Of a stretch of 64,000 nucleotides of DNA, positions 43,810 to 63,904 are shown piece after piece. Position 1 is the stretch's first letter, and each line of letters starts with the position of its first letter. A program made the position numbers and the translations under genes. The DNA lies in IMG/VR virus record IMGVR_UViG_3300050336_000030; one strand, written 5' to 3'. The notes beneath the pieces were generated by a model. The model did no database searches, was not told where the DNA came from, and saw only the letters and a program-made list of their open reading frames with translations. This stretch comes from a virus. Lineage: Duplodnaviria > Caudoviricetes.

Positions 43810-44013
43810 ATGGAGGTAAACAGTATGGATAATTTAAGAATCTACAAATTAGCATATGAAAGACTATTACAGGAGTTAACTTTTGAGAAAAGCAAGCCAC
43901 AAACTGAATTAGTAAAGAACAAAGTTATTGAACTTGATAACGAGGTTATATGGCTTGATGAACAGATTAAAAAACTAGAATACGAGAAAAGTTTAGAATT
44001 TTGGTACAAATAA
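43810..44013 (+). CDS. Hypothetical early protein
   Basis: ORF; probable start at ATG 43825 after GGAGGT. Confidence 0.6.
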   Translation: MEVNSMDNLRIYKLAYERLLQELTFEKSKPQTELVKNKVIELDNEVIWLDEQIKKLEYEKSLEFWYK

Positions 44014-44028
44014 ATCTAACATTTTATA

Positions 44029-44271
44029 GTGATTATAGGAGGAAATAACATGGTAAAAAGAATTGAAACTAGGCTAAATTGTATGATTGATTGGTTAGAA
44101 AAGGAATCTATTGAGTATTCAAGAGAAGAGTTTAAAAAAGATGTTGAAAGAATGCAAGATGCAATAAATGAAGCATTATTCATTGATTTAATAACAGATA
44201 AGCAGTATTCAGAACTTACAGAATTAGTTAAAACAAAGTCTATTAAGTATTTTTTAAATAAATCAAATTAA
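44029..44271 (+). CDS. Hypothetical early protein
   Basis: ORF; probable start at ATG 44050 after AGGAGG. Confidence 0.6.
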   Translation: MIIGGNNMVKRIETRLNCMIDWLEKESIEYSREEFKKDVERMQDAINEALFIDLITDKQYSELTELVKTKSIKYFLNKSN

Positions 44272-44274
44272 GAA

Positions 44275-44344
44275 TTTATATGCAGAGTGGCAGAGGATAA
44301 AACCTCTGTTAATGCACTAGCTAAACGGTCACAAGTCCGATAAA
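44275..44344 (+). ncRNA. Twister ribozyme, P5-type permutation
   Basis: TTTAT..TGCA GA GTGG CAGAGG ataaaa CCTCTG TTAA TGCA..CGG TCACAAGT CCG ATAAA; P1, P2, P4, P5 and T1 all pair. Confidence 0.75.
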
Positions 44345-44376
44345 CAAGGCACTACCATATTATAGGAGGTTGTACA

Positions 44377-45114
44377 ATGGCAAGTATAGATTTTATAAGT
44401 AAACGTATCCAAGGTAAACAAAAGGAAATTGACAAATTAAATAAGAAGCTTGAAAGAATTCAGAAAGCTAAACAATCTAATTGGGAAAAGAACCCTTATT
44501 ACTATAGCGAATATGATTTAAACAGTACAGAAAAGGAATTGAATTTTGCAATTAAACAGCTTGATAGTTTGCAATCTGATTTACAAACAGCAAACGAAAA
44601 AGCAAATAGCCGTAATGTATTAGCAATAACTCAATTTTTAGATGCTTGGTTACAAAGAAATATAGAATTCTACACAGAGGAAAAGGAAAAATATGATATA
44701 GCTTTATCTGACTACCGGCAGCATGATAGAGATTACTGTAATTGGTTTAATTCACTAAGACATAATGTAACGGTAGAGAAAAGAAAAGAAGTAGAAAAGA
44801 ATCACAAAGAGTATAGAACTAATTTTATTAAATCTTGGAATACACAATTTGACCACGGAACTAAAGAATGGCATGAAACAATGCATAACGATTTAAAAGA
44901 GGAATACAATCGTAAATACGATTATATAATCGAAAAGACAAACGAAATAGTAGGCGAAATTACAGACGCAAGCTATTTAACAGTAGACGCAAACGGAAAT
45001 TTAAACGGCTACATTATAGGAACAAGAGGAAAAGCAAACGTCAATACAATCGGTGCAGGTGGTTACAATATACAATGTTATCATTTCAGAACGCTAATTC
45101 ATGAAATTAAATAA
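44377..45114 (+). CDS. Conserved phage coiled-coil protein
   Basis: C-terminal [24 protein letters not shown]; strong SD. Confidence 0.7.
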
Positions 45115-45169
45115 CAAAAGTAGTAATCAAACAATTATTTTATTCATAGTAAAGGAGAAATGAAACATT

Positions 45170-45427
45170 ATGATTAATATTGATACATGGGTTAGAGGAT
45201 ATAAAGTAAGGGCTTTTAATTGGGTAGATAACAATAGTATATATTTTAATGTACAATATTTTCAATCTGGTCAATCAATTAGTAAACCTCCTGTTTGGGA
45301 TAAAACAGTATATATTACAGATAATGAGGCTGGACAAAAGCTTATAAGAGAATTTTTAGATTCATTAGTTGAACATGTTGCAAAAATGCAAATTATAAAT
45401 GGTAATAAAGTAGTAATAACAGCATAG
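45170..45427 (+). CDS. Hypothetical protein
   Basis: 85 aa ORF with SD. Confidence 0.6.
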   Translation: MINIDTWVRGYKVRAFNWVDNNSIYFNVQYFQSGQSISKPPVWDKTVYITDNEAGQKLIREFLDSLVEHVAKMQIINGNKVVITA

Positions 45428-45481
45428 AAAGTGCATTTTATGAAGTATAAGCAATATAAAACAATAACAGGAGGTAACACG

Positions 45482-45646
45482 ATGTTATCATATGAAGAGA
45501 TCAATAAGAATCAAAAGGAAGACAAAAATTATATTGCAATCGGTGACAATGGAAAAGAATATACAGCTTCATGGGTAGTAAAATATCCGGCAATGTTTTT
45601 CTGTATTCCGTCAACCGTTGAAGTTATCGGTTATAAAGAAGCATAA
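45482..45646 (+). CDS. Hypothetical protein
   Basis: ATG after SD GGAGGT (MLSYEEINK..). Confidence 0.55.
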   Translation: MLSYEEINKNQKEDKNYIAIGDNGKEYTASWVVKYPAMFFCIPSTVEVIGYKEA

Positions 45647-45756
45647 CTATTTAATATTTATATGTGCTTACAAGATATATAAAACGGCTTGTAAGTAGTT
45701 ATAAAGATTAAATGTAACTAATAAACAATCATATTAAATTATAGGAGGATTTTACA

Positions 45757-47475
45757 ATGATGAAAGATATTAACGGAATCGAATTACAAGAAGGTATGTT
45801 TTTAAAACTAACAGGATGTAAAGTAAAAAATGATAACAGTATTTATATTATAGCAGTAGATCAAAATACAAATGAGCAGTATACAAAAAGTAATTGCTAC
45901 ATTTTACACAAGGTAAACGCAAACGGAACAGAATCAAAAGCAAAATACAACTTATTATTTATTGATAAATGGTTATTTGAAAAGAATCCAGAGGTTAAGA
46001 TTGAAGTTGTAACAGATTTAAAACAGGCAGCAAAGGAAGTAAAAGAGTTTTTAAATGGTGTAATATCAATTGAAAAAGTTTATTCGTTTATTGATGCAGA
46101 TAATCAAACACTTAAAACATTAACAGCCGGACAGTATATCACATTTAAAAAACGCTTGCATTTACAAGGTAGAATGTATTCATTTTCAGGAACATATAAA
46201 CTAGATCATATTAGCAATCATGGAGAAAATATCTATAGTTTACATTTAGTTGGGGCAAAGGGTGAAACGGTATCATATAACGACAATAATAATTATCAGG
46301 GCAGACCTATTGTATTAAGTTTTAAAGAAAAATTAATGAATCAACTTTTTAATGAAGAATATGTAACAATTCAAGAACGCACAGAAACAACAAAAGGAGA
46401 ATTGCAAAAGGCAACAAAGGAAGAAATCAAAGACGAAGTAATAACAGAGCAGCCAAAAACAGTAACTGAAACTATTCCAGAAGTTGAAACAGCAACAGAA
46501 GAAGTTACAGAGAATAATACACAGCAAGAAGAAACAGCGGAACAAAATGAAGTTATAATAGTAGAAAGAAAGTATTTCCCTATTAATGAACAACTTGCAA
46601 AGTCAGCAAAAGGTATGTGGAGTTTTTCGGATTATACTCCAAACAGTACAACAAACAGCTATAAAAAATCAGTAGATGAAATATACGCCATTGTTGATAA
46701 AATAGCAGAACGAAAGCCGTCAAGAATATCAGAAGCCGAAACAATAGCAGAAAAATACTCTCGTAAATATGCAGAATGGATCAATAAAAGCAATCATATT
46801 GAAATGATGTGTCCCTCAGTTATGATATGTGGAGGATCAAATTTTCCGGTTAGAAAGAAAGAAAAACAGAATAGGGCAAGAGATAATCACCAGAAAGAAT
46901 TTGAGTATATTAACGGTTATATTTCAAAATTAGAAAATATATTAAACGGTAACGAAGTTATTAAGAGTGGAGACGCTGACGCAATCGAAAAATTACAAGA
47001 AAAATTAAAACAGTTTGAAGAACTACAAGAGACAATGAAACAAGTAAACGCATATTATCGTAAAAATGGATCTCTTGACGGATGTACGCTAATTAGTCAA
47101 AAAACCATTAACAGTATTAAGGATTTAATGATTAGAATTCCATATCATACGCAGCCATTTGCTAGTTATGAATTGACTAATAATAACGCAAGTATCAAAA
47201 ACACCAAACAGCGTTTAGAATCATTGCAGAAAGTAAAGGAAATAGGCACAAAGGAAACAATAAAAACGGAAGTTTGTCAAGTGGTAGAGAATAGCGAATT
47301 GATGCGTATTCAATTATTATTTGATAGTATTCCAGATGCAGAAACACGAAACATTTTAAAATCTAATGGTTTTAAATGGAGTCCAACAAATAAGGCATGG
47401 CAGCGACAATTGACCGATAATGCAAGATATAGCACAAAGAAAGTAATAGAACAATTAGAAAAACTATCAGCGTAA
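45757..47475 (+). CDS. Multidomain early protein with a DUF3560-like C-terminal half
   Basis: PSVMICGGSNFP, IKSGDADAIEKLQEKL, RIQLLFDSIPD..LKSNGFKWSPTNKAWQR; E/T-rich linker. Confidence 0.6.
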   Translation: MMKDINGIELQEGMFLKLTGCKVKNDNSIYIIAVDQNTNEQYTKSNCYILHKVNANGTESKAKYNLLFIDKWLFEKNPEVKIEVVTDLKQAAKEVKEFLNGVISIEKVYSFIDADNQTLKTLTAGQYITFKKRLHLQGRMYSFSGTYKLDHISNHGENIYSLHLVGAKGETVSYNDNNNYQGRPIVLSFKEKLMNQLFNEEYVTIQERTETTKGELQKATKEEIKDEVITEQPKTVTETIPEVETATEEVTENNTQQEETAEQNEVIIVERKYFPINEQLAKSAKGMWSFSDYTPNSTTNSYKKSVDEIYAIVDKIAERKPSRISEAETIAEKYSRKYAEWINKSNHIEMMCPSVMICGGSNFPVRKKEKQNRARDNHQKEFEYINGYISKLENILNGNEVIKSGDADAIEKLQEKLKQFEELQETMKQVNAYYRKNGSLDGCTLISQKTINSIKDLMIRIPYHTQPFASYELTNNNASIKNTKQRLESLQKVKEIGTKETIKTEVCQVVENSELMRIQLLFDSIPDAETRNILKSNGFKWSPTNKAWQRQLTDNARYSTKKVIEQLEKLSA

Positions 47476-47573
47476 CAAGATAATATATCATGCACATTAT
47501 AGTTTTATACGTGTTATAATGTGCATGAATAAGTGTTAAAACAACAATTACATATAAATGGAGGTATGAAACT

Positions 47574-47900
47574 ATGAAAAGATTATTTAAGAAAAACACA
47601 TGTTTTAACTGGAGCGAGATCAAGATTATTGATACCGAGGAAAACACATTTACACAGTATTTACAAGATAACGAAATTGGATTTATTTTCTCTAAATCAA
47701 CAGACACACTTGAAAAAATGTTTTATTCATCGGCAGATGATTGTATTAAGAGATTAACAGAACGTGGTATTCTAGGAACGGAAGTAGACTATGAACAACA
47801 AATTGAATCAGAAAGAATCGGTCAGATAAGGTTGAAATCAGAGCAAGAAAGAATTAAAAAGAATCCGTTAGAATATAAACAGCGTATAGCCGCATTGTAG
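47574..47900 (+). CDS. Hypothetical protein
   Basis: 108 aa ORF with SD GGAGGT. Confidence 0.6.
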   Translation: MKRLFKKNTCFNWSEIKIIDTEENTFTQYLQDNEIGFIFSKSTDTLEKMFYSSADDCIKRLTERGILGTEVDYEQQIESERIGQIRLKSEQERIKKNPLEYKQRIAAL

Positions 47901-47919
47901 GGAAAGAGAGGTAAACAGA

Positions 47920-48126
47920 ATGACAGTAGAACAGACAAATAGAATTAACATTACGCTTGATAGAGCAATAGAGCAGAATAAAATTGACAATAAAACAGAT
48001 GCAGTTATAACAGAAAATAAAGACGGTTTAGCTTTACTTAATTGGAAGAATTCAAGACGAAGTTTTTGTTTTACAATATTTCAGGATGGATCAATTCATA
48101 GCGGAAAATTTGGAATGTGGCAATAA
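47920..48126 (+). CDS. Hypothetical protein
   Basis: 68 aa ORF with SD. Confidence 0.6.
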   Translation: MTVEQTNRINITLDRAIEQNKIDNKTDAVITENKDGLALLNWKNSRRSFCFTIFQDGSIHSGKFGMWQ

Positions 48127-48187
48127 AATTTTATAACTTAAAATTGTAATTTCATGTGGTGTCATAGGACACAGAAAGAAGGATATT

Positions 48188-48367
48188 ATGGAAATTAAAA
48201 TAAACGAAACTTACACATTTAATCATAAGGAAGGAAATGTATTAGAAAAATATGATGGAACACAATGTAAGATAATTAGTAAAGATAACATGCATAATGA
48301 TATGTATTTTGCAGAAATGTGTGATGGTAGAAAAATTCAAGTTTACACAAAAGAATTAAGCAGATAG
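48188..48367 (+). CDS. Hypothetical 59-aa protein
   Basis: Below the ORF-track cutoff; SD AAGGA; MEIKINETYTF..QVYTKELSR. Confidence 0.55.
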   Translation: MEIKINETYTFNHKEGNVLEKYDGTQCKIISKDNMHNDMYFAEMCDGRKIQVYTKELSR

Positions 48368-48411
48368 AAAATAGATTTTATAAGCCTTTAAAAGCTAGAA
48401 AGTAGGTTAAT

Positions 48412-48645: not shown

Positions 48646-48698
48646 TAACAAATAAATATGAACCAAAGACGGTTTTTATCAAGAAAGGAGATAATAAT

Positions 48699-48902: not shown

Positions 48903-48959
48903 AATTATTTAATTATAATTAACATTAAAACAGGTTTTATATAGTTAGGAGTTTGGTAT

Positions 48960-49887: not shown

Positions 49888-49901
49888 AATTATTAATAGA
49901 A

Positions 49902-49985: not shown

Positions 49986-50435
49986 ATGATAAAAGAAATA
50001 GTAAAGAACACAGAACAACTACAAAAGAAGTGCAGAACAGCATCAGCAAAAGAAGATTTACATATCATTAAAAATTTAATTGATACCGCTAATGATGCAA
50101 ATAAACCACCGGAAACAGAAAACGATGTTCAACGTGGATGCTGTGGGTTAGCTGCGAATCAAATAGGATACGATAAACGGATTGTCATAGTATCAGTTGG
50201 AAAAGATAAATGGATTCCATTAATTAATCCAATGATTACTTTTAAATCAAAAGAACGGCATGAGTCAATCGAGGGTTGTATGTCACTTGATGGAGAAAGA
50301 ACAGTTCAAAGGCATGATACAATAAAGGTTAAATTTCAACAATCAAACGGTAAGTTTTCAGAGTTTAGATGTCATGATTTTTTAGCAACAGTAATACAAC
50401 ATGAAATTGATCATCTTGATGGAAAGTTGATATAA
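49986..50435 (+). CDS. def: Peptide deformylase
   Basis: GCCGLAANQIG, EGCMS, QHEIDHLDG. Confidence 0.92.
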   Translation: MIKEIVKNTEQLQKKCRTASAKEDLHIIKNLIDTANDANKPPETENDVQRGCCGLAANQIGYDKRIVIVSVGKDKWIPLINPMITFKSKERHESIEGCMSLDGERTVQRHDTIKVKFQQSNGKFSEFRCHDFLATVIQHEIDHLDGKLI

Positions 50436-51126: not shown

Positions 51127-51185
51127 ATTTGCCATAATAGGTGTAAACCAAATATTGATTCTATAAGGTGAAAGGGGAGGTTTAA

Positions 51186-51485
51186 ATGCAAATAGGTGAT
51201 ATTTACAGTGGGTATCCTTACAGTATTATGATATGTAGAATTGGCGATGATTCAGTAGATGTTATACCAATTACGGCAGACAAAAACAAAATAGATAGAC
51301 TAAATAATAATTGCTATTCAGAATTTATGTTAAATAATCGTAAAGAGTACGCTTTATTGCATTTAGTAGAAACGATTGAAAATATCCATTCAACAAAATT
51401 AGATAGTGTTGGGAAAGACATTTATAATCAGATTTTAAATGATTATGCATTTAAGATGTTGGGCGTCAAAATTGTGGTAAAATGA
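51186..51485 (+). CDS. Hypothetical protein with weak PemK/MazF-like pattern
   Basis: GDIY..VDVIPIT; otherwise divergent. Confidence 0.4.
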   Translation: MQIGDIYSGYPYSIMICRIGDDSVDVIPITADKNKIDRLNNNCYSEFMLNNRKEYALLHLVETIENIHSTKLDSVGKDIYNQILNDYAFKMLGVKIVVK

Positions 51486-51511
51486 TTATTTTATAAGGAG
51501 AGTGTTTAACA

Positions 51512-52505: not shown

Positions 52506-52506
52506 T

Positions 52507-52578
52507 CTCGACTAGACGAGTATAAACAGGCATTAGGTCTAGTGCGCCACACCTGTAATAACATCAGGTGTGGGTTGT
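52507..52578 (+). ncRNA. Pistol self-cleaving ribozyme
   Basis: CTCG ACTAGA CGAG TATAAACAG GCA TTAGG TCTAGT GCG CCACACCTG..CAGGTGTGG GT TGT; P1, pseudoknot, P2, P3, GCG and the G-U cleavage site are all present. Confidence 0.88.
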
Positions 52579-52634
52579 TAGATTATTAATCAATTAACTG
52601 TCTGTATTGGAAAAATAGAAAGGATGTGAGTTAT

Positions 52635-52748
52635 ATGAAACTATTAAAATTCATGTTAACATGGTTACTAATGATAATAATGGCTATTTTTATGCCAGTG
52701 TTGATGTTAATGAAATATAAAGTAACAGTAGAAGCAGAAAGACAATGA
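52635..52748 (+). CDS. 37-aa hydrophobic peptide
   Basis: SD AAGGATGTGA; MKLLKFMLTWLLMIIMAIFMPVLMLMKYKVTVEAERQ. Confidence 0.55.
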   Translation: MKLLKFMLTWLLMIIMAIFMPVLMLMKYKVTVEAERQ

Positions 52749-52777
52749 ATCAATTCTTTGATTAAGAAGTGATGGTG

Positions 52778-52845
52778 ATATGAAACAATTTAAAAATCTA
52801 TTGACAAATAAATGTAAATTTGGTATAGTAAAGGTAATATGAAAC
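52778..52845 (+). promoter_or_regulatory. sigmaA promoter flanked by two ATATGAAAC boxes
   Basis: TTGACA(52801)-17-TATAGT with extended TG; boxes at 52778 and 52837. Confidence 0.6.
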
Positions 52846-52853: not shown

Positions 52854-53075
52854 TTAATTTAGAGATTTTGGATCATCACTTATACCGGTAATATAATCAA
52901 GAGATATATTAAAAAATTTAGCAAGTAAGATTAATTTGTTAAGAGTTGGTTCTTTTGTACCAGACAAATAAAATTGCAAACCTCTTACAGATATACCTAT
53001 AGCGTCAGCTAATTCTTGATTAGATATGTTATTTTTTTCTTTTAATTCTTTAAGCCTAGTATTAAAGTTTGCCAT
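52854..53075 (-). CDS. XRE-family repressor
   Basis: RLKELKEKNNISNQELADAIGIS..EP..LAKFFNISLDYITG. Confidence 0.9.
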   Translation of the reverse strand: MANFNTRLKELKEKNNISNQELADAIGISVRGLQFYLSGTKEPTLNKLILLAKFFNISLDYITGISDDPKSLN

Positions 53076-53418: not shown

Positions 53419-54534
53419 ATGGAAGTAAGACGTACGAATTATTCATTAAAAAGAATAGTTTCGGATATGAAAAAAGGTAAAATAACATTTGATTTTCCAA
53501 TTCAAAGAGAATCTGGACAATGGGACAAAACGCAACAAGGTTTATTAATTCATAGTATTTTACAAGGATTTATTATTCCCGATGTTTATATCATAAAAGA
53601 AGGATCAACTGAATTTTCTCCATTTTCTGTATTAGATGGTAAACAACGGTTAACAACGGTTTATAATTACTACAATGATAAATTTAAACTTCCAAAAGAT
53701 ATTGAAAATGTGGTAATAATAGATGTTGATTTTACCAATGGTGAACAAAATATTTCAGAAAATAGTTATATAGTTGCTGATAAGAGATTTTCGGAATTAG
53801 ATGGTAAACTAAAAGAAATTTTTTTAGATTTTACGTTTGATGCAAAAATGCTAGTTGGTTTTACAGATGATGAAATTGAAGAACAATTTTACAGATTAAA
53901 CAATGGATGTATTTTTACTAAAGCACAAAAAAGTAATGTTAAACTTGGTACCGTACTTGCTGGAAAATTAAAAGAAATAGAACAAAGTAATTTTTTCAAA
54001 TATAAAGCATTATTTTCATCTGCCCAAAGAAGAAGAGGTGAAATTACAAGTTGTATATTACAAACACTTATGTTATTGATAGGGTATGAATATAGTAATT
54101 TTGGCTCCAGCGAAGTATTTAAATTTGCAGAATGGTACAGTGAAAATTATGATGAAAAACAATTAGAATATTGTAAACAATTGTTTGACAGACTTTATAA
54201 TTTATTGCCTAAAGATGAAATGTCTAAAAAATATTTAAAGAAAATAAATATTCCCATGCAAGTGATGAACTTGGATTATATGGATAGTTTAGATGAATCA
54301 ATATCCGACAAGGAGTATACGGAATTTTTAACAAAGTGGTTTGAGGTATGGATTGAAACATCTGGATACATAGATTTCTGTGGTCAAGGTTCTACTAGTA
54401 AAACAAAAGTTGAGGGAAGATTAACAATAATTGATAAAGAATTAAAAGATTATGTGATAAATAAAACAATTGAAAGGAACGAGAGCAATGGAACAATTAA
54501 AGAGGAAACTGACAGATTTGAAGCCGCATCCTAA
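53419..54534 (+). CDS. DUF262 (ParB/GmrS-like) domain protein
   Basis: PIQR..W..LIHSILQGFIIP..VLDGKQRLTT..FYRLNNG. Confidence 0.85.
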   Translation: MEVRRTNYSLKRIVSDMKKGKITFDFPIQRESGQWDKTQQGLLIHSILQGFIIPDVYIIKEGSTEFSPFSVLDGKQRLTTVYNYYNDKFKLPKDIENVVIIDVDFTNGEQNISENSYIVADKRFSELDGKLKEIFLDFTFDAKMLVGFTDDEIEEQFYRLNNGCIFTKAQKSNVKLGTVLAGKLKEIEQSNFFKYKALFSSAQRRRGEITSCILQTLMLLIGYEYSNFGSSEVFKFAEWYSENYDEKQLEYCKQLFDRLYNLLPKDEMSKKYLKKINIPMQVMNLDYMDSLDESISDKEYTEFLTKWFEVWIETSGYIDFCGQGSTSKTKVEGRLTIIDKELKDYVINKTIERNESNGTIKEETDRFEAAS

Positions 54535-55627
54535 AAACGAAGAGATTTATGGAAGTAATGAAGACGTAAGTGATCTTATTGTTAAAATTCAAAAAAGCGG
54601 TAAAGTATCAACATTCACTATTACCAAAAATAACGTTATTATCGCAGGTCATAGGAGAAGAAAGGCTTGTATGCAATTAGGTATTAAAGAAGTAAACGTT
54701 GAAATTATGGACTTTGATTCTCCAGAAGATGAAGTTGAGTGGTTGATACTTGACAATGCTACTAGAGAAAAAACAGTTGAACAAAAAGGCAGAGAAGCTA
54801 AAACATTATTGGAAGTAGAAAAAGTTAAGGCAGAAAAGAGATTATCAGAACTAGGTGCAACTGGAGGCAGAGGTAAAAAGGGTATGGCAGAACTGCCACA
54901 GGGTTTTGAAAAGGGATTATCCAGAGATTTAACCGCGCAAAAAGTAGGTTTGAAGTCGGGTAGGGAAGTAGAAAGGGCTATTAAAACAGTAGAAATTATT
55001 GATGGATTAAAGGAGGATGGTAAAGATGAAGAGGCTGAGTTGATAAGAGGAGTATTAAATAATCGAAGTGTATCAATAGCAGAAGAATTAGCAAAAAATA
55101 TTGATAATGTTGTAATTCCAGACGAAGAAAAAGAATTAATTAAAACTGGAAAGAAAAGTGCATATTCATATGTTGAAAAAGCAAAACAAAAATTACAACC
55201 ACAAGAAGAAACTAAAGTATGTAAGGTCTGCGGTAAAGAATTATCATTATATAATTTTTATGATGGTAAAAATACTTGTAAAAATTGTTGTGCAGAAGAA
55301 GATAGAAAAAGAAAAGAAAATAGTAGGGTTTTTCGAGATGCTTCTGGTAATGAATTAAAAATTGATCATGAATTATTAAAGGGGGTTGATATGAATGCCA
55401 TAATTGAAAGTATAAAAGGAGATGTAAATCGGAATCCAGAAATCAATTATGAATTAGAATACGAATTATTTAAATCTAATGTAGACGATTTTATATTCGC
55501 AAATAATAAGTTTATAAAAAATAATGAACTATATAATGGTATGTCAAATGATTTACAATTAATGTTTAAAAATGAAGTAAATAAGTTAAGTAATGCTGTT
55601 GAACAATTAAAAAATATTATAAAATAA
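54488..55627 (+). CDS. ParB N-terminal domain protein with HTH and Zn finger
   Basis: LKPHPKNEEIY..IIAGHRRRKA..LDNATRE; CKVCGK..CKNC; ATG after AAAGGA. Confidence 0.8.
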   Translation: MEQLKRKLTDLKPHPKNEEIYGSNEDVSDLIVKIQKSGKVSTFTITKNNVIIAGHRRRKACMQLGIKEVNVEIMDFDSPEDEVEWLILDNATREKTVEQKGREAKTLLEVEKVKAEKRLSELGATGGRGKKGMAELPQGFEKGLSRDLTAQKVGLKSGREVERAIKTVEIIDGLKEDGKDEEAELIRGVLNNRSVSIAEELAKNIDNVVIPDEEKELIKTGKKSAYSYVEKAKQKLQPQEETKVCKVCGKELSLYNFYDGKNTCKNCCAEEDRKRKENSRVFRDASGNELKIDHELLKGVDMNAIIESIKGDVNRNPEINYELEYELFKSNVDDFIFANNKFIKNNELYNGMSNDLQLMFKNEVNKLSNAVEQLKNIIK

Positions 55628-55632
55628 GGAGA

Positions 55633-56505
55633 ATGAAAATTATGAGTACATTAAAAAATTTAATTAAAAACAATAAGGTAGTGGATGGTAATTTGGCACT
55701 TAATAATGTGGTAGATATTACAGATGAACCAGCAGGGACAATTAAAACTATGAAACTTAATACATCAGTGTTAAACTCAACTCAGCCTTATCAACGCGAT
55801 TTAGATCAAAAGAAAATTGCTGTTATTGTATCTAATTTTAATATTCATAAATTTGGTATTATTAAGGTTAGTTATAGAGATGGGGTATATTATGTTTATG
55901 ATGGGCAACATAGATTAGCCGCAATTAAAACCAAAAATGGTGGCAGAGATTGTTTAGTAGAGTGTGAAGTTCACTATGGACTTACATACGAAGATGAAGC
56001 TAGATTGTTTGCGGAACAATATGATGGAGCAACAAAAGTTGATATTGTATATAAGTGGAGGGCTATGTATGAAGGTAGGTTACAGCCTGTATATGAAATA
56101 GTAAACTCATGTAAGAGAATTGGAATTGATATTAATTTTTCAAAATCCAAAACTAACAATCGTATAATTTGTCTTGGTGAATTACAGAAAATGTGGAATA
56201 AACTTAAGGCTGAAGATACTTTAAAAGCCATTAGTTTAATTAAAGAGACTTGGAATGGGGATATGAATTCATTTAACAAGAGTATAGTTGCCGGAATGAA
56301 AGAGTTTTATGCAATTTATAAAGATGAAATTAATGAACAGACTTTTGTTAAGCAATTGAGAAGAATTGAACCTGCTAAGATCGAAGCTCTTGGAAATTCT
56401 GATATGATTACTCGTGGTGATTTAAAATATGCAAAGGTTATTTGGGATGTATATAATAGAAATCTCAGAGAAAATAATCGTTTAGATTATAAGTTTAAAG
56501 GTTAA
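55633..56505 (+). CDS. ParB-like (DUF6551-type) protein
   Basis: YQRDLD..FGIIKVSYRDG..VYDGQHRLAA..EARLF. Confidence 0.75.
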   Translation: MKIMSTLKNLIKNNKVVDGNLALNNVVDITDEPAGTIKTMKLNTSVLNSTQPYQRDLDQKKIAVIVSNFNIHKFGIIKVSYRDGVYYVYDGQHRLAAIKTKNGGRDCLVECEVHYGLTYEDEARLFAEQYDGATKVDIVYKWRAMYEGRLQPVYEIVNSCKRIGIDINFSKSKTNNRIICLGELQKMWNKLKAEDTLKAISLIKETWNGDMNSFNKSIVAGMKEFYAIYKDEINEQTFVKQLRRIEPAKIEALGNSDMITRGDLKYAKVIWDVYNRNLRENNRLDYKFKG

Positions 56506-57022: not shown

Positions 57023-57565
57023 ATGTATGTATTAACTAACGGAACATGCTATTATAATAAAACAGATACAAATAAAATAGTAAAAGTTACAAATATTAAC
57101 GATGCGTTTATATTTGATACAGAAGAACAGGCAAACAAAGAAATTAAGAGAGCTCCAGCAAAATTAAAAAACTATAAACTCAAAGAAATCTTTGAGGTAG
57201 CCCCACAGTCACATAAGATATGTAAACGAAAATCGTTTGGTACAGGAACCAGAAAAGCAGTTTACAGAAAGTCCAAAGGTCATTGTTGCTTGTGCGGTGA
57301 ATTTGTTGATTATGATGATTTTACAGTGGATCACATCATTCCGTTAGCAAAGGGTGGTACTAATGATATTGATAATTTACAATGCGCTTGCAAAGTATGT
57401 AATAACATTAAAACTGACGTTTTACCAAATGAATTTATTGATAAGATTACAGAAATGATTATTCATAATATGAACAATAAATATAATAAGAAAATAGGAA
57501 ATAAAATTATTAAGATGATAATAACAGCTAATGTACATAGATTAATTAAAAGAAAATCTAGTTAA
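57023..57565 (+). CDS. HNH endonuclease
   Basis: CCLCG..TVDHIIPLAKGGTNDIDNLQCACKVCNNIK. Confidence 0.9.
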   Translation: MYVLTNGTCYYNKTDTNKIVKVTNINDAFIFDTEEQANKEIKRAPAKLKNYKLKEIFEVAPQSHKICKRKSFGTGTRKAVYRKSKGHCCLCGEFVDYDDFTVDHIIPLAKGGTNDIDNLQCACKVCNNIKTDVLPNEFIDKITEMIIHNMNNKYNKKIGNKIIKMIITANVHRLIKRKSS

Positions 57566-57599
57566 AATACTTATTTGATACATAGAAAGGAGAATTAAT

Positions 57600-57773
57600 A
57601 TGTTTGATTGTGAAAATGAAATGTGCTGCTATACATGTTTAAGTGGTGAATATGTTAAAGACAATGATTTAGGATATAAAGTATTATGTCATGAAGATGA
57701 TGAGTATAGAGAACCAGATGAAGTTTGTTTGAAATTTAAAGATCATCAACAATATAAAAATACTATTTTGTAA
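57600..57773 (+). CDS. Small Cys-rich protein
   Basis: SD AAAGGAG; MFDCENEMCCYTC.. Confidence 0.5.
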   Translation: MFDCENEMCCYTCLSGEYVKDNDLGYKVLCHEDDEYREPDEVCLKFKDHQQYKNTIL

Positions 57774-58139: not shown

Positions 58140-58157
58140 TAAAGGAGATGTGAAACC

Positions 58158-58307: not shown

Positions 58308-58320
58308 AAGGGTGATAATT

Positions 58321-59298
58321 ATGTGTTACAAAGACGAGGTTCAAAGAGAATCTATTGAAAAATTAGAAGAAAAATTAGTCAATGTACCGGAGTTTATACA
58401 GAATTATTTTACATTCTTGAACAGTGCTAAGTCTAAAGTCGTATATTGGAGTAATATTCGTTCTTTTTTAGAATGGCTTATTGAACAAAAGGTTATTAAA
58501 AATACAGTAGAATATATTGTAGTTGACGATTTAAAGAATGTAAATGATATTCATATAGTTAAATATTTAGATGGTAGATTAGCAGGTATGTATGGAGAAA
58601 AAATATCTCTCAATACTGCAAATAATAAAATGAATTACATTAGAGGGTTTTGGAGTTACTTACTTGAAAATGATTATGTTCCGAAGAATATAGCAACAAA
58701 AAGAGTTGCTAATAAATACAAAGTAAAAATAGACAAAGAAGTAGAAGTTCCTACTGATGAAGAAGTTGAACAATTTTTAAGCAATCTTGAAAGTATTAAG
58801 AGTGAAATAATAGCAGTTAGAAATATAGCAATCGTTAAGTTATTTATGGGTAGCGGAATTCGTATTGAAGAACTTGTTGGATTGGACATCAATGATTTAC
58901 ATTTAGATGGTAATGAACCATATATTTCTATAATGCGTAAAGGTGAACAACATACAAAAAAAGATTTAGATATAAGTCAATCAGCAGTGGAAGCTATTAA
59001 TGACTATTTAAAAATAAGAAATTTGAATTCTGAATTAAAAGACATGGAACCTTTGTTTTTATCTGAAAGAAAAGATAGATTAGCTCAAAACTCAATTCAA
59101 AAATTCTTTGAAACGTACAGTAATGGAATGATCCATCCTCATATGCTCCGGCATTACGCAGGTACTAAAATGTATGAAAGCAATCATGATATTGTGGGAG
59201 TAAGTGAACAGTTAGGTCATGGAGATATTAATACAACTAAAAAGTATTATGTTAAGTCTGACAAGAGTTCTATTAGGGCTGCATTAAATAGTATTTGA
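58321..59298 (+). CDS. XerC/D-like tyrosine recombinase
   Basis: SGIRIEELVGL, RKG, HPHMLRHYAGT, QLGH..TTKKYY. Confidence 0.92.
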   Translation: MCYKDEVQRESIEKLEEKLVNVPEFIQNYFTFLNSAKSKVVYWSNIRSFLEWLIEQKVIKNTVEYIVVDDLKNVNDIHIVKYLDGRLAGMYGEKISLNTANNKMNYIRGFWSYLLENDYVPKNIATKRVANKYKVKIDKEVEVPTDEEVEQFLSNLESIKSEIIAVRNIAIVKLFMGSGIRIEELVGLDINDLHLDGNEPYISIMRKGEQHTKKDLDISQSAVEAINDYLKIRNLNSELKDMEPLFLSERKDRLAQNSIQKFFETYSNGMIHPHMLRHYAGTKMYESNHDIVGVSEQLGHGDINTTKKYYVKSDKSSIRAALNSI

Positions 59299-59353
59299 TT
59301 AAACAGGATTATTTGAATGTCTACAATTTGTATGATATAATTACAGTAATTAT

Positions 59354-59641
59354 TTGGTAGAAGAAATGTTTTTAAAACAGAGATTTTATAGTGATATGAA
59401 AGGAAAATTTGTGATGGATGATATAAAACAAATGAAAAATAAATGCCATCAAGTTTTTGATTCCTACTGGGCGAAACAATTAAAGGGGACAGATAAGAAA
59501 CACATTAGAAATGTCAGGAAAAGAGCTTACATTAGATTAACAACTGAAATGAGATTGCCTGATAAAAGATATAGCCATTTTAGTAAAATGAATGACTTAC
59601 AAACACTGAATAAGGCTTATGCAATTATAATACAATGGTAA
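59354..59641 (+). CDS. Hypothetical protein (DUF3268 C-terminal-like)
   Basis: CHQVFDSYW..RKRAYIRL..HFSKM; start uncertain. Confidence 0.45.
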   Translation: MVEEMFLKQRFYSDMKGKFVMDDIKQMKNKCHQVFDSYWAKQLKGTDKKHIRNVRKRAYIRLTTEMRLPDKRYSHFSKMNDLQTLNKAYAIIIQW

Positions 59642-59677
59642 ATATAAACATTATTTCATGTAGAAAGAGAGGATGTT

Positions 59678-59983
59678 ATGTATAAAGTAACGTATTTAGA
59701 TGAAAACAGAAAAGGATTTTCAAATACAGAGCCTTGGATATTAGACGAATTTGAAAATATTAATATAGCGAACAGTGAAGCTGATCGGCTCATTGAAGAA
59801 GGATATAAAGATGTGAAAGTAATACCTGTTAAATTAATTACTTGGCAGTGTTTAAAAAAGCTAAATAATGAAGAATTGTTAAATTTAGTAACAGATATTA
59901 ATAACGGCACTAGTTATACAGTAGATGGATATGAAGATATTTATCCTACTGATGAAGAAATTTTAGATTATGCAGGAGTATAA
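59678..59983 (+). CDS. Hypothetical protein
   Basis: 101 aa with SD GAGGA. Confidence 0.6.
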   Translation: MYKVTYLDENRKGFSNTEPWILDEFENINIANSEADRLIEEGYKDVKVIPVKLITWQCLKKLNNEELLNLVTDINNGTSYTVDGYEDIYPTDEEILDYAGV

Positions 59984-60038
59984 ATAACACGATAAAAAAC
60001 GATTTTTATTTTGATTTATAAAAAGGAGATGTTTTTAT

Positions 60039-60260
60039 TTGAAACATATTGTAACAACGGTGAATGAAAGAGCTGGAGTTTATCCAGTAGGAACAAGTTC
60101 TTGTTTTAATATAGGTATTAGTGGTAATTGTAAAAATAATTGCTACAAGTGTTCTGCATTTGATAATGATGAAATGACAGATCAGGATATTGTTGATAAT
60201 TTTGGAGTAGAAGAACAGGAACGTATGTTAAAAGAATTTGAAGAATGTGGTGATTTATAA
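60039..60260 (+). CDS. Small Cys-rich protein
   Basis: TTG start after AAGGAG; C..C..C..C. Confidence 0.55.
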   Translation: MKHIVTTVNERAGVYPVGTSSCFNIGISGNCKNNCYKCSAFDNDEMTDQDIVDNFGVEEQERMLKEFEECGDL

Positions 60261-60287
60261 ATAAAAAATTTTGTTGGAGGATTTTAA

Positions 60288-60461
60288 ATGGCAGCAATAT
60301 GTAAAGAGTGTGGATGTGAAGATTTAAGATTTGACGAAAATATAGGTTATTATTGCAATAACTGTTCTAGTGTAAATATTTTATATTTTAAACAATATGA
60401 AAGTGAAAATTTCACAATAAAACAATTAAAAAGTAAATATAAAGAGCAGATAAAAAAGTAA
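60288..60461 (+). CDS. Small zinc-ribbon protein
   Basis: SD GGAGG; CKECG..YYCNNCS. Confidence 0.55.
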   Translation: MAAICKECGCEDLRFDENIGYYCNNCSSVNILYFKQYESENFTIKQLKSKYKEQIKK

Positions 60462-60485
60462 TTTTGTTTAGATTAAAAAAAGGAG

Positions 60486-60740
60486 ATGATAAAAATGAGA
60501 TTAACTAATAAAACAGAACGTTGGAGTATGGGAAACGAAACGTATAAAGGGAAATACAAAGGATATGAATGTAATATTAGCTATTCTTCAGAATATTATA
60601 GTAAAATTCCATTTTGGTATTTTACATGTACTAGTAAGGAAGATAAAAGTTTTAATTCATTGTGGAATAGTTTAAAGTACAATACAAAAGAAGAGTGCCA
60701 TGATGCTTGTATAAAATATATTGATGAAGATTGTAAATGA
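60486..60740 (+). CDS. Hypothetical protein (paralog A)
   Basis: MRLTNKTERWSMG..YKGY..WYF..FNSLW. Confidence 0.6.
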   Translation: MIKMRLTNKTERWSMGNETYKGKYKGYECNISYSSEYYSKIPFWYFTCTSKEDKSFNSLWNSLKYNTKEECHDACIKYIDEDCK

Positions 60741-60776
60741 ACTTAAATTTTGTTTGGTTATAAGGAGGATGATAAG

Positions 60777-60992
60777 ATGAAATTAACTGATAAGACAGAT
60801 AAATGGAGTATGGGCAGTAGAAGATATGAAGGAAGAAAGAATGGATATAAAGTAGCAATTATTTTTTTAGCAAAAAGTTGGGCTGATGAAAACGAATATT
60901 GGTTTTATACGTTGTCTAATGATAACTATAGTTACAATTGTTTATGGGAAAAATTATTATTTACTAGTTATCCAACTAACTTTATATGGTAA
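60777..60992 (+). CDS. Hypothetical protein (paralog B, possibly C-terminally truncated)
   Basis: MKLTDKTDKWSMG..KNGY..WFY..YNCLW; SD AAGGAGG. Confidence 0.55.
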   Translation: MKLTDKTDKWSMGSRRYEGRKNGYKVAIIFLAKSWADENEYWFYTLSNDNYSYNCLWEKLLFTSYPTNFIW

Positions 60993-61031
60993 TTTGCAGA
61001 CCAAACGAGAATTTGGTAGTTATAGAAAGGA

Positions 61032-61241
61032 ATGATAATTATGGATGATATTATTCTATCCAGAGAAGCTTCTTTGAATTTAATTAAACAGTTATGTAAT
61101 CCTGACAAAGAAGCATTAGAAAAAAGAGATGAGTATTTAGCAAGCATATATCAAGCAGTAATAAAAAATAAAGATGGATCTATCACATTAATATGTGATG
61201 ATTTGGATTTGATCGAATTAGAACATCAATCGTCTGATTGA
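61032..61241 (+). CDS. Hypothetical protein
   Basis: ORF with SD AAAGGA. Confidence 0.55.
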   Translation: MIIMDDIILSREASLNLIKQLCNPDKEALEKRDEYLASIYQAVIKNKDGSITLICDDLDLIELEHQSSD

Positions 61242-61483
61242 TGTTTAAAAATGAAAAGGAGATTAAAATTATGGATAGTAAATTAGAGTATGAATTAAGT
61301 GAACAGTTGGAAACACCAAGCTTTGCCAAGATACATACAAAGGTTATGAGATTATGGTGTGAAGCTGAAGAAGGAACAGAAATGTTTGATAAGTTAAAAG
61401 ACATCATTGATACAATTGAGGAAGAACGAAAGAAATTAGAAAATGTTAAGTCATTAGCTTTTATGATAGCTAATAAATTATAG
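61238..61483 (+). CDS. Hypothetical protein
   Basis: Probable start at MDSKLEY after AAGGAG. Confidence 0.55.
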   Translation: MMFKNEKEIKIMDSKLEYELSEQLETPSFAKIHTKVMRLWCEAEEGTEMFDKLKDIIDTIEEERKKLENVKSLAFMIANKL

Positions 61484-61522
61484 ATGAAAGAATCATTTGA
61501 TGCTAAAAATAATTTTATAAAT

Positions 61523-61560
61523 GTACTTGACACGTACATGTTAAGTGTATATAATGGTAC
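61523..61560 (+). promoter_or_regulatory. Consensus sigmaA promoter with GTAC boxes
   Basis: TTGACA(61527)-17-TATAAT(61550); GTAC at 61523, 61534 and 61557. Confidence 0.7.
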
Positions 61561-61577
61561 TTGAAAGGAGGAACAAT

Positions 61578-61727
61578 ATGGCAAAGCAAAAGCAAAACAC
61601 TAAAAGAGTTAGTGTTTTCTTATCCCCAGAAATACATCAAGAATTACAATTAGAAGCAGAAGAAAAAGGAATGAATGTTAGTGCTTTAATTAGATTGATT
61701 ATAATGGAGAGAAGAACAAAAAAATAG
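61578..61727 (+). CDS. Ribbon-helix-helix (CopG-like) regulator
   Basis: TKRVSVFLSPEIHQELQLEAEEKGMNVSALIRLII; SD AAAGGAGG. Confidence 0.8.
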   Translation: MAKQKQNTKRVSVFLSPEIHQELQLEAEEKGMNVSALIRLIIMERRTKK

Positions 61728-61803
61728 TGGTTGCATCACCCTGAGAAAGTTAACAACCACTATAGCCATACTTTGCCACATAAACTCATAGGTGGATTGG
61801 CTA
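61718..61803 (-). ncRNA. Candidate small antisense RNA
   Basis: Minus-strand TTGAAA-17-TATAAT (extended TG) at 61837-61809; two hairpins; terminator TAGTGGTTG/CAACCACTA plus T7. Confidence 0.6.
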
Positions 61804-61863
61804 TTAATATTATAGCATAAATGGCTAATCCTTTCAAGTTGTTAAAGAAAGGAAACTATAATA

Positions 61864-62157
61864 ATGATTAAAGAAGAATTGAACAAAGCAATTAACATGC
61901 AAGAAGAATTTGGAAACCCATTTATTGTTGTATATAAACCTAAGAACAAAAATAAAATCGTTGAATTCGATTCTGATACAGCTGCATTTGACATTGTGGA
62001 AAATACAGTAATGTTTGACTTTTGGGAGATGGATGGATTTAATGTAAAGTTAGATAAAATCAAATCTATTCTGTTTGAAAAATTTTCAGATGCTATGACA
62101 ATTGTACATATTAGTTTAAAAAATAAAAATACGGTGATGCTACATTTTATGAAATAA
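61864..62157 (+). CDS. Hypothetical protein
   Basis: 97 aa with SD AAAGGA. Confidence 0.55.
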   Translation: MIKEELNKAINMQEEFGNPFIVVYKPKNKNKIVEFDSDTAAFDIVENTVMFDFWEMDGFNVKLDKIKSILFEKFSDAMTIVHISLKNKNTVMLHFMK

Positions 62158-62187
62158 TTTCTTGTGACTTGGGAAGGTGGTGATAAG

Positions 62188-63405
62188 ATGAAAGTCACAA
62201 GAGTAGAACAACAAATGATTAAGAAAAGTCACCCATTATGGAAAGTTATTGATGAAAAATGTTATCATTCTAAAAACTTATATAATGAAGCTAATTATGT
62301 AATCAGACAAGAGTTTATAAATAATGGTAAATATATTAATTACTATGATATGAACAAAGAATTTAAAACACACGATAATTATAAGCTATGCGGAAGTCAA
62401 CCTGCTAATTGTACTTTGAGGCTACTTGATAAGAACTGGAAATCTTTCTTTGTAGCTATAAAGGATTGGACTAAGAATAAAGAAAAATATCTTGGTATGC
62501 CAAAAATGCCAAAGTATCTTAAAAAGGATGGTAGATATATTTGGAGTATCCCTAACAATACCGTTTTCATTAAAGAAGCTGGTAAAATTCATTTTGCAAT
62601 AAGAAAAATGCAATCGTATAATTGGAAGACTAACGCAAAAGGCAGATTATTACAAGTAAGATTCGTACCAAGAGCAAACTTCTACATGATGGAAATTATA
62701 TATGAAACAGAAGTGATTGATATACCTTCAGATCTTAAATCTAGCAGAATTACATCAATTGATTTAGGGATAGACAACTTTATAACTATGACAAATAATA
62801 TCGGCATTCAGCCAATTATTATTAACGGTAAAGGTATTAAATCCATAAATCAATTTTATAACAAACAAAGAGCCAAGATGCAAAGTGAACTAAAAATAAG
62901 GCATAATAAGTTTACAAGTAACAAATTTATTGCAATGACTAACAAAAGAAATAGGCGAATCAAGAATTATATTCATTGTACTAGTAAATATATAGTCGAT
63001 TATTGCAAGAAAAATAACATTGACACATTAGTTTGTGGGATTAATAAGGAATGGAAGCAAGAATCAAGTATGAGTAAAGTTTCAAATCAAAAGTTTATTA
63101 CAATTCCTTATGATATGTTAATTAGCCAGCTAGAATACAAGTGTCAGGATTATGGCATTAAATTCATCACAACAGAAGAGAACTATACAAGCGGTACATC
63201 ATTCTTAGATGGTGAAATTCCATGTAAAGAAAATTATGATAAGAGCAGACGTATCAAGAGAGGTTTGTTTCAATCTAAAAATCAATTAATAAACAGCGAT
63301 GTAAATGGTTCACTACAAATCATGAAGAAAGTATTTCCAGATGCATTTAAGCAATGCTACGGAATAGAGGGTGTTCTAACCCCTGTAATTATAAGTGTAG
63401 CGTAA
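62188..63405 (+). CDS. tnpB: RNA-guided endonuclease TnpB (IS200/IS605/IS607-associated)
   Basis: SKNLYNEANY, PKYLKKDG, RuvC-I SIDLGIDN, TEENYTS, RuvC-III INSDVNGS; no transposase nearby. Confidence 0.9.
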   Translation: MKVTRVEQQMIKKSHPLWKVIDEKCYHSKNLYNEANYVIRQEFINNGKYINYYDMNKEFKTHDNYKLCGSQPANCTLRLLDKNWKSFFVAIKDWTKNKEKYLGMPKMPKYLKKDGRYIWSIPNNTVFIKEAGKIHFAIRKMQSYNWKTNAKGRLLQVRFVPRANFYMMEIIYETEVIDIPSDLKSSRITSIDLGIDNFITMTNNIGIQPIIINGKGIKSINQFYNKQRAKMQSELKIRHNKFTSNKFIAMTNKRNRRIKNYIHCTSKYIVDYCKKNNIDTLVCGINKEWKQESSMSKVSNQKFITIPYDMLISQLEYKCQDYGIKFITTEENYTSGTSFLDGEIPCKENYDKSRRIKRGLFQSKNQLINSDVNGSLQIMKKVFPDAFKQCYGIEGVLTPVIISVA

Positions 63406-63480
63406 TATGCTACATGATTTATTATAAATCGATTAATAATAATCGAATAGAATGTATATTTGATATGAGGAGAATAATTA

Positions 63481-63867
63481 ATGAAAAGAGATATGGATCT
63501 AGTAAGAAAAATTCTTTTTGCGATTGAAGAACAAAGTGATGGAACAGCTATATATGATCTTGAAATTGAAGGATATACAGACAAAGAAATTGCATATCAT
63601 TGTAAGATATTATTTGATGCAGGTTATTTACTTGATTATGATGCTCAATATGCAGACGGTGATTACTTGATTGGATTTGGTGTTGGTAATTTATCTTGGA
63701 ATGGAAACGAATTTTTGGACATTATTAGAAATGATACAGTATGGAATAAAACAAAAGATACTATAGTTAAAAATGGGTTATCCATGGTAGTCGATGTAAT
63801 AAAATCTATAGCAACTGATATTGTATCGAGTATGACACAGGCTGTTATTAAAGGCATGATACAATAA
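63481..63867 (+). CDS. DUF2513-family protein
   Basis: MKRDMDLVRKILFAIE..YHCKIL..LSWNGNEFLDIIR. Confidence 0.85.
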   Translation: MKRDMDLVRKILFAIEEQSDGTAIYDLEIEGYTDKEIAYHCKILFDAGYLLDYDAQYADGDYLIGFGVGNLSWNGNEFLDIIRNDTVWNKTKDTIVKNGLSMVVDVIKSIATDIVSSMTQAVIKGMIQ

Positions 63868-63904
63868 ATCGATGATTTGACAATGATTGAAAAGTGGTGA
63901 TATT

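Follow-up and report, generated by a model that had tools for sequence, protein, structure and literature searches.

An 18-bp intergenic dyad of SPbeta-like phages on which mosaic junctions concentrate

We report an 18-bp element that punctuates the early genes of a tailed phage, the IMG/VR virus IMGVR_UViG_3300050336_000030, of which a stretch of 64,000 nucleotides (the window) was analysed. The element, hereafter the dyad, consists of two inverted 6-bp arms placed exactly 6 bp apart, with the consensus ATAAAA-N6-TTTTAT. Our results demonstrate that the dyad is a real class of site, specific in its spacing and restricted to intergenic DNA, and that in this phage and related ones, SPbeta among them, some 40% of neighbouring genes have a dyad between them. 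In these relatives, mosaic junctions concentrate on the dyad. The base frequencies of its arms point to a two-fold symmetric site on duplex DNA that would be read by a dimer.

The window corresponds to bases 937-64936 of a viral record of 139,975 bp that is complete, bears terminal repeats and has about 29% G+C, and the source material was an anaerobic-digester metagenome. The terminase shares 46-47% identity with its counterparts in SPbeta, phi3T and the Goe phages, and the genome is laid out as in SPbeta, with a minus-strand late arm followed by a long plus-strand arm of small genes. Sequence comparison with SPbeta further identifies orthologues of YomM (Table 1), the YonO RNA polymerase (31706-34462) and YonR (52854-53075 and 63905-64222) in the window, and an orthologue of the master repressor MrpR/YopR just past its end (window-equivalent 66784-67794, or 67720-68730 of the whole genome, G000; 23% identity over 304 amino acids (aa), E=1e-6). 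By these comparisons, the phage is a distant SPbeta relative. Megablast of the early and late arms against phage records returned zero matches, and the closest carriers of one early gene include a contig from an Anaerocolumna metagenome-assembled genome.

An earlier reading, made from the window's letters alone (the sequence-only reading), had listed 22 copies of the dyad, 19 in the early arm and three in the late arm, and every one of these strings was found at its listed place. Their arm complementarity ranges from 3/6 to 6/6. At the loosest tolerance of up to four mismatches to the consensus, the 43.8-64 kb region shows no enrichment, with 578 sites versus 574 ± 22 in dinucleotide shuffles; because such matches occur at background frequency, the listed copies at 61000, 61225, 51147, 52745 and 63864, which have 3-4 mismatches, are individually uncertain. 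At stricter levels the dyad is strongly enriched over an AT-matched background. With at most one mismatch, nine sites occur in the early arm versus 2.0 ± 1.4 expected from the shuffles, and TAAA-N8-TTTA is found 16 times in intergenic spacers versus about three times at other spacings. Genome-wide, degenerate half-sites in intergenic DNA are found 45 times at a spacer of 6 bp versus 3-10 times at each other spacer from 0 to 14, while coding DNA shows no excess of these half-sites at spacer 6 (31 versus 17-41 for other spacers). Scanning with a position weight matrix (PWM) places the dyad in 29-52% of co-directional spacers versus 0-11% of control spacers, and expectation maximization from neutral seeds converges to nnnATAAAAnnnnnnTTTTATnnnGA. 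The half-site reads A-T-[A>C,G]-[A>G]-A-[A>T], and its information content is limited to 6 (at most 7) positions per arm.

The expected placement of the dyad between the upstream stop codon and the next Shine-Dalgarno (SD) sequence was borne out, with the right arm lying 1-13 nt (mode 5) before the SD core. Dyads occupy 29 of 89 spacers in the plus-strand arm and 4 of 37 in the late arm, and two good sites, at 44262 and 59372, had been missed by the sequence-only reading. The upstream stop codon coincides with left-arm positions 2-4 in 16 of 39 strict sites. This is close to the one-third expected, because the consensus A-TAA-AA holds TAA in one frame, and a lock between site and stop codon was therefore dropped. 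Full dyads are also present at places remote from stop codons.

The two arms deviate from the consensus symmetrically, with mirror-image base frequencies. They do not covary, since 181 Watson-Crick pairs were counted versus 183.8 ± 3.1 expected under independence (p=0.86), and the central pair is mismatched in 13 of 39 sites. Because the arms are symmetric yet do not covary, a hairpin, whether of RNA or of attC-like single-stranded DNA, is excluded, and a dimer site on double-stranded DNA is indicated. The dyad holds neither a -35/-10 pair nor a G+C stem, and no plus-strand terminators were predicted in 42-62 kb. A promoter function was also rejected, since the early-arm promoters are of the ordinary sigma-A type and are bracketed by a repeat of their own, (G)TGATAGTtaTATGAAAC. 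This second intergenic repeat, approximately (G)TGATAGT(T/A)A-TATGAAAC, is mostly paired, with one copy just upstream of the -35 element and one just downstream of the -10 element. It is probably the operator of the phage's MrpR-like master repressor and a functional analogue of the SPbeta repeated element (SPBRE).

The specificity for a spacer of 6 bp is strict in seven genomes from three host genera. SPbeta has 21 intergenic sites at spacer 6 versus 0-11 at others, some of them in divergent and convergent intergenic regions, and phi3T and Goe14 carry 41 and 38 dyads in total, respectively. In the Mammaliicoccus phage phi127 (PV389080.1) the counts are 52 versus 14 and 20, with about 30 perfect copies, and in L006, a relative of the window's phage, 14 versus 1-7. 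The excess is weaker in Staphylococcus SPbeta-like and borderline in phiCD211, and it is absent from the Enterocloster phage PMBT24, the Lactococcus phage phiL47, the distant relatives L002-L004 and the distant carriers L027-L029 of an early-arm gene for a 245-aa protein. The dyad thus characterizes the closer SPbeta-like clade in hosts of three genera, and a conserved reader is implied. In a limited literature search, we found no description of it in work on SPbeta. Separately, perfect copies at 20159, 31271, 38328 and 44655 of phi127 lie within long annotated open reading frames (ORFs), which include a ribonucleotide reductase, an endolysin and a 7.9-kb tail gene; these copies may mark intron, intein or domain-module boundaries.

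Mosaic junctions were then compared with PWM-called dyads in the SPbeta family and in a phi127 pair, using the spacer as the unit. In all three comparisons, homology breakpoints were associated with the dyad, a relation that the sequence-only reading had proposed to look for. Between SPbeta and phi3T/Goe14, junctions fall in 23 of 35 dyad spacers versus 38 of 120 others (odds ratio (OR) 4.1, p=0.0004), and the effect holds within each spacer length class. Dyad spacers score 0.68 junctions against 0.41 for the non-dyad spacers that flank them, and shifting the dyad labels gives 13-18 junctions versus the 23 observed. In long spacers of this comparison, no more than 5 nt separates the dyad from 10 of 21 junctions (3.6 expected, p=0.001). 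SD-like sites, taken as a control, show no junction excess (9/57 versus 10.6 expected), and a further count of such sites gives 5/29 versus 5.1. The comparison of phi3T with Goe14 gives an OR of 3.65 (p=0.004), with 6 of 11 junctions near a dyad versus 1.5 expected, and the independent pair phi127 and phi6255 gives an OR of 3.2 (p=0.016).

Individual junctions map to the edges of the dyad or to the boundaries of its spacer. In SPbeta, the switch in sequence identity coincides with the outer border of the left arm at 83687, 92393, 99497 and 86073, with the left-arm/spacer boundary at 87598 and with the spacer/right-arm boundary at 86885. Because the arms are identical, breakpoints at arm edges cannot be placed more finely, and crossovers inside the arms would account for them equally well. 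Junctions usually leave an intact dyad in both genomes. Among dyad pairs that share a spacer and have a homologous flank, about 30% are homologous on one side only, left about as often as right, and the site is thus not oriented with respect to the genes. In Bacillus phages, same-spacer dyads with both flanks different number 61 versus 24 expected. Within the window's own lineage, the left arm and spacer of the dyad at 44010 (ATAAAT-CTAACA) recur with different right arms and downstream genes in L006 (9644) and L007 (7065/9960), and L005 and L006 both retain the dyad at 44262 and its spacer as an island surrounded by DNA that cannot be aligned. A phi3T-SPbeta hybrid contains two crossovers, both within long tracts identical in the parents, where their positions are unresolvable. 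A search of contigs for excision circles returned two joints, both from an unrelated contig with 23-29-nt matches.

One possible mechanism is that a dimeric phage protein, conserved in SPbeta-like phages, reads the two 6-bp arms exactly 6 bp apart, and that the dyad is a preferred crossover point for the exchange of gene modules between related phages. The likeliest process would be conservative site-specific exchange by a phage tyrosine recombinase, of the YomM type or of the Xer type, which would bind both arms and cut at the edges of the spacer. We favour such module exchange tentatively, as a reading somewhat short of probable. That a protein binds the dyad, which protein this is, and that the exchange is site-specific rather than a by-product are points that we infer. 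Since the spacers of nearly all dyads in a genome differ, exchange would take place preferentially between corresponding dyads of two related genomes, and different dyads of one genome would be poor partners. A further extension, which we think unlikely as it stands, is genome-wide address-coded recombination in SPbeta-like phages, in which identical arms and distinct 6-bp spacers would allow in-register swaps between co-resident relatives, such as an infecting phage and a prophage. Such swapping would need no flanking homology and would not delete the phage's own genes. The original proposal of mobile cassettes moved by a recombinase is supported in part, since the 6-6-6 geometry and a catalytically intact tyrosine recombinase confined to the clade agree with it, as does the association with junctions. 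Its comparison with an integron is not supported, as we found no IntI-type enzyme, no attI/Pc platform and no polarity of the site relative to the gene.

Both tyrosine recombinase genes claimed for the window are present with intact catalytic residues. The YomM-type protein is the best candidate for the reader or enzyme of the dyad. It belongs to a family of more than 1,200 members, and Arg174, His271-x-x-Arg274, His309/310 and Tyr319 are invariant in 22 close homologues (the catalytic Lys aside); orthologues of about 25% identity keep the box-I Arg, both His and the Tyr. Across eight genomes the YomM type tracks the dyad, being found in phi127, Staphylococcus SPbeta-like and phiCD211 and not in the dyad-negative PMBT24 and phiL47. 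Only four proteins are common to our phage, SPbeta and phi127 and missing from PMBT24, namely those like YomM, YonG, YonJ (an exonuclease) and MrpR. SPbeta integrates via a serine recombinase (PMC10516654, PMC8270828), which leaves the YomM-type enzyme without an assigned role. Sequence searches of the YomM-like protein against solved structures gave no match. The second candidate, the Xer-type recombinase encoded inside the array, has XerH as its best match in the PDB and a weak partial match to IntI4, contains an HMLRH box and the Tyr, and is weakly similar to SPbeta YopP; a Phage_integrase gene occupies the same relative place in L005 and L006. Other possible readers were rejected. HU/YonN is absent from our phage and phi127, YonO has a 41%-identical copy in dyad-negative PMBT24, the YonR-like helix-turn-helix (HTH) protein is absent from phi127 and Staphylococcus SPbeta-like and so does not track the dyad, and MrpR is assigned in SPbeta to the SPBRE.

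Several observations weigh against exchange by a tyrosine recombinase. The arms are only 6-7 bp long, whereas those of typical recombinases are 9-13 bp. The second catalytic Arg, intact here, is replaced by Lys (H-x-x-K) in the Bacillus and Mammaliicoccus YomM proteins and in YopP. The genomes G006 and G007 carry a YomM-like gene of 62% identity without a dyad excess (24 versus 48 and 12 versus 29), G004 and G005 have almost none, and the phyletic correlation of YomM with the dyad is confounded by relatedness. As to the junctions, the statistics come from SPbeta-type pairs, since the relatives of the window's phage share with its early arm only the 245-aa gene, from SD to stop, or nothing. Most junction spacers in the SPbeta comparison, 38 of 61, contain no dyad, the effect is absent from SPbeta 100-134 kb (7/13 versus 16/34), and the excess of dyads with both flanks different is absent in Mammaliicoccus (14 versus 14). 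A first, cruder test based on strict dyads and counted block ends gave no preference at the spacer level (17.5% versus 12-16%); it was replaced, since weaker dyads escaped it and its unit was not the spacer. Finally, a regulatory role would be served equally well by the tight placement between stop and SD and by the precedent of MrpR, a recombinase fold turned regulator in the same phage family.

Such a role is the content of the main alternative, a strong rival that we rate as less likely than exchange. The dyads would be operator or roadblock sites for a dimeric regulator, either an XRE-type HTH protein such as the YonR-like ones or an MrpR-like regulator of recombinase fold, and, in the manner of mycobacteriophage stoperators, would regulate transcription between cistrons or insulate them from one another. 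Symmetric, non-covarying half-sites some 11-12 bp apart from centre to centre suit an HTH dimer, the position between stop and SD is fixed, and the strong conservation of the arms across hosts speaks for direct selection. The sites also lie within operons, not at the promoters, which carry their own operator-like repeat, and the SPbeta master repressor is itself a tyrosine-recombinase-fold protein that binds a dispersed intergenic repeat (PMC10516654). The junctions would then be secondary, arising by selection for intact expression units or by breakage at tightly bound proteins. However, the 3-4-fold higher frequency of junctions in dyad spacers relative to their neighbours is not predicted by a regulator, and neither are the clustering of junctions at the dyad in long spacers and the negative SD control. 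The phyletic mismatch of the YonR-like protein and the absence of HU/YonN described above also count against it, and the peaks of MrpR in SPbeta, mapped by chromatin affinity purification sequencing (ChAP-seq), lie only at SPBREs.

Recombination might instead be a by-product, with dyads that have a role in expression serving as short linker homologies for annealing or recombination proteins, much as promoter early stem-loop (PeSL) cassettes do. In hyperplastic regions, accessory ORFs are flanked by PeSLs, through which modules are shuffled and mini-circles form (PMC2839356), phi127 encodes a Sak4-like annealing protein, and crossovers inside conserved arms would yield the fine structure seen. 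We nevertheless consider this improbable, as the conserved bases amount to only 6+6, far below a PeSL, the dyad has neither promoter nor terminator, and the SD motif, equally conserved and more abundant, shows no junction excess. More improbable still, to the point of being hardly credible, is a signal in the polycistronic mRNA, in which AUAAAA-N6-UUUUAU would form a hairpin or bind a protein to affect processing, stability or re-initiation. The sites do lie between stop and SD on the transcribed strand, and self-cleaving ribozymes in the early arm indicate that transcripts are processed. But compensatory variation is lacking, with the central pair so often mismatched, a stem of six A-U pairs would be very weak, a consensus that is symmetric without pairing makes sense only for duplex DNA, and SPbeta has sites in divergent and convergent regions as well. 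Base composition, by which A-rich and then T-rich hexamers would arise from AT-rich intergenic DNA in a stop-codon context, accords with the background-level count at four mismatches and with the TAA in the left-arm consensus. The spacer scans, strict for 6 bp and intergenic DNA in seven genomes, refute it, as do the full dyads away from stop codons, and we give it virtually no weight.

Table 1 Positions of dyads, tyrosine recombinase genes and promoter-bracketing repeats (window numbering)
Feature	Sequence	Position	Strand	Remarks
Dyad	ATAAAT-CTAACA-TTTTAT	44010..44027		Stop of upstream gene at positions 2-4
Dyad	ATCAAA-TTAAGA-ATTTAT	44262..44279		Absent from earlier list; Twister-P5 ribozyme directly 3'
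Dyad	ATCAAA-CAATTA-TTTTAT	45126..45143		SD 9 nt downstream; PWM score 14.6
Dyad	ATAGAA-AGTGCA-TTTTAT	45424..45441		TAG stop within left arm
Dyad	TTAAAA-TTGTAA-TTTCAT	48138..48155		
Dyad	ATAGAA-AATAGA-TTTTAT	48364..48381		Stop within left arm
Dyad	ACCAAA-GACGGT-TTTTAT	48662..48679		Passes PWM (13.4), fails strict pattern
Dyad	ACCAAA-TATTGA-TTCTAT	51147..51164		Weaker; PWM 11.8; 3 mismatches to consensus; individually uncertain
Dyad	GTAAAA-TGATTA-TTTTAT	51477..51494		Overlaps end of upstream ORF
Dyad-like	ATGAAT-CAATTC-TTTGAT	52745..52762		Promoter/operator region; 3 mismatches; individually uncertain
Dyad	TTAAAA-TACTTA-TTTGAT	57562..57579		Stop within left arm
Dyad	ATAAAA-ATACTA-TTTTGT	57754..57771		
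Dyad	TTAAAA-CAGAGA-TTTTAT	59372..59389		Absent from earlier list
Dyad	ATAAAA-AACGAT-TTTTAT	59992..60009		Perfect
Dyad	ATAAAT-AAAAAA-TTTTGT	60257..60274		
Dyad	ATAAAA-AAGTAA-TTTTGT	60450..60467		
Dyad	ATCAAT-CGTCTG-ATTGAT	61225..61242		Fits degenerate pattern; 4 mismatches to consensus; individually uncertain
Dyad	ATGAAA-GAATCA-TTTGAT	61484..61501		
Dyad	ATAGAA-TGTATA-TTTGAT	63447..63464		42 nt past TnpB stop
Dyad, late arm		11054..11071		Just upstream of YomM-like recombinase gene
Dyad, late arm		12242..12259		
Dyad, late arm	ATAAAA-AGTTGA-TTTTAT	30675..30692		Perfect
YomM-type tyrosine recombinase		9899..10954	-	SPbeta YomM orthologue, E=2e-14
Xer-type tyrosine recombinase		58312..59298	+	Inside array; second candidate; Pfam Phage_integrase 8.6e-30
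Promoter-bracketing repeat		52779-52786, 52838-52845		Around promoter 52801-52829
Promoter-bracketing repeat, further window copies		37164(-), 43006, 49903, 56996		
Promoter-bracketing repeat, beyond window		70900/70962, 77355/77418, 89137/89247, 105287/105398		Window-equivalent coordinates

Other features of the genome were noted in passing. The YonO-type RNA polymerase (31706-34462, minus strand) is 38-41% identical to that of PMBT24 versus 26% to SPbeta YonO, the opposite of the affinity shown by the terminase, so the backbone is itself mosaic. A 415-aa gene with a counterpart in phi127 adjoins the MrpR/YopR orthologue. The genome contains a fourth gene of the Phage_integrase fold (G000 117718-118338, plus strand; 409-aa frame, Pfam E=2e-31), which is possibly the phage's true integrase, and the BLAST comparison of the phage with SPbeta showed no homologue of an SprA-type serine integrase. 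Minus-strand DNA at 37226-40245 is 66-69% identical to L006 2380-5458, where the counterpart genes match ALP_N (actin-like), FtsK/SpoIIIE and Replic_Relax; they form a partition or plasmid-like module in an SPbeta-like phage, possibly a sign of a phage-plasmid lifestyle.

The early arm carries a peptide deformylase gene (49986-50435), a TnpB gene (62164-63405; OrfB_IS605 plus a Cas12f-like TNB domain) with no TnpA nearby, and a defence-like run (53419-56505) of GmrSD_N, an unassigned 385-aa protein and a DUF6551 protein with a weak DndB-like match. The 245-aa protein (44377-45114) belongs to no known family and has more than 1,200 relatives, encoded in phage, plasmid or integrative-and-conjugative-element-like (L007: ParA, ParB, MobC, NikA) and other contexts; its gene is a widely travelling accessory gene. 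Rfam identifies a Twister-P5 ribozyme (44281-44340; 51.8 bits), which immediately follows the dyad at 44262, and a Pistol ribozyme (52506-52579; 59.6 bits). At the equivalent places on both sides of the 245-aa gene, L005 and L006 contain structured inserts of some 60-80 nt that remain unmatched.

Whether the mosaic junctions of phages come to lie at gene boundaries by random illegitimate joining followed by selection, or through conserved linkers, is an old question. The dyad is a short, precisely defined site common to a whole clade, and one of the members of this clade, the Bacillus subtilis phage SPbeta, is a model amenable to genetics. Because the site is shared with SPbeta and junctions concentrate on it, the question becomes directly testable. 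Should a recombinase be at work, gene-cassette systems could be said to arise in a new manner, and the dyad might become a tool for exchanging modules in register; should a regulator be at work, SPbeta biology would gain another dispersed operator system, its second. The address-coded reading, if true, would provide a dedicated mechanism for phage mosaicism at gene boundaries.

Each of the known systems that we compared resembles the dyad in part. The PeSL cassettes of T4-type phages, composites of promoter and terminator stem-loops that recombine by homology (Arbiol et al. 2010, PMC2839356; PMC4122927), are likewise short repeated intergenic elements around small accessory ORFs in plastic regions, and they bound indels and replacements between close relatives. 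They are much longer, whereas the dyad has 18 bp with 12 conserved bases and no promoter, terminator or hairpin, and the SD control argues against simple short-homology exchange. The SPBRE, the operator of MrpR (YopR) in SPbeta (PMC10516654), is a dispersed intergenic repeat of the same phage family that is read by a tyrosine-recombinase-fold protein. As derived from nine of ten ChAP-seq target promoters, it is an asymmetric 15-16-mer (approximately ACAAAAAATATGTATA) at about 10-12 promoter regions. It is unrelated to the dyad, with two chance-level matches in this genome. The dyad differs in being symmetric, in its 20-50 copies, in its location inside operons and in its absence from the MrpR ChAP-seq peaks.

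In its geometry the dyad resembles the core sites of tyrosine recombinases (dif/XerCD, loxP/Cre, the lambda core and Tn916), which have inverted arms around a 6-8 bp spacer: the 6-bp arms stand exactly 6 bp apart and no other spacer length is enriched. It departs from them in arms of 6-7 bp, where 9-13 bp is usual, and in being present tens of times per genome, with a spacer that differs from site to site. As with integron attC/attI, gene-sized units are separated by recombination-type sites, often with stop codons within the site. An attC site, however, is a single-strand hairpin conserved in shape, while the arms of the dyad are conserved in sequence without covariation; the recombinase genes here are located within the array or the late arm, and every gene retains an SD of its own.

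The stoperators of cluster A mycobacteriophages, reportedly described by Brown et al. in EMBO J in 1997, also number in the tens and are dispersed over the short gaps between the genes of long operons, close to start and stop codons. They are asymmetric 13-bp repressor sites that act in one orientation, unlike the mirror-image arms of the dyad, and we know of no indication that they mark mosaic junctions. The shufflon offers a likeness in its one tyrosine recombinase, Rci, and its many short sfx sites in one replicon; there the spacer is conserved, the arms are asymmetric and the products are only inversions within one gene cluster.

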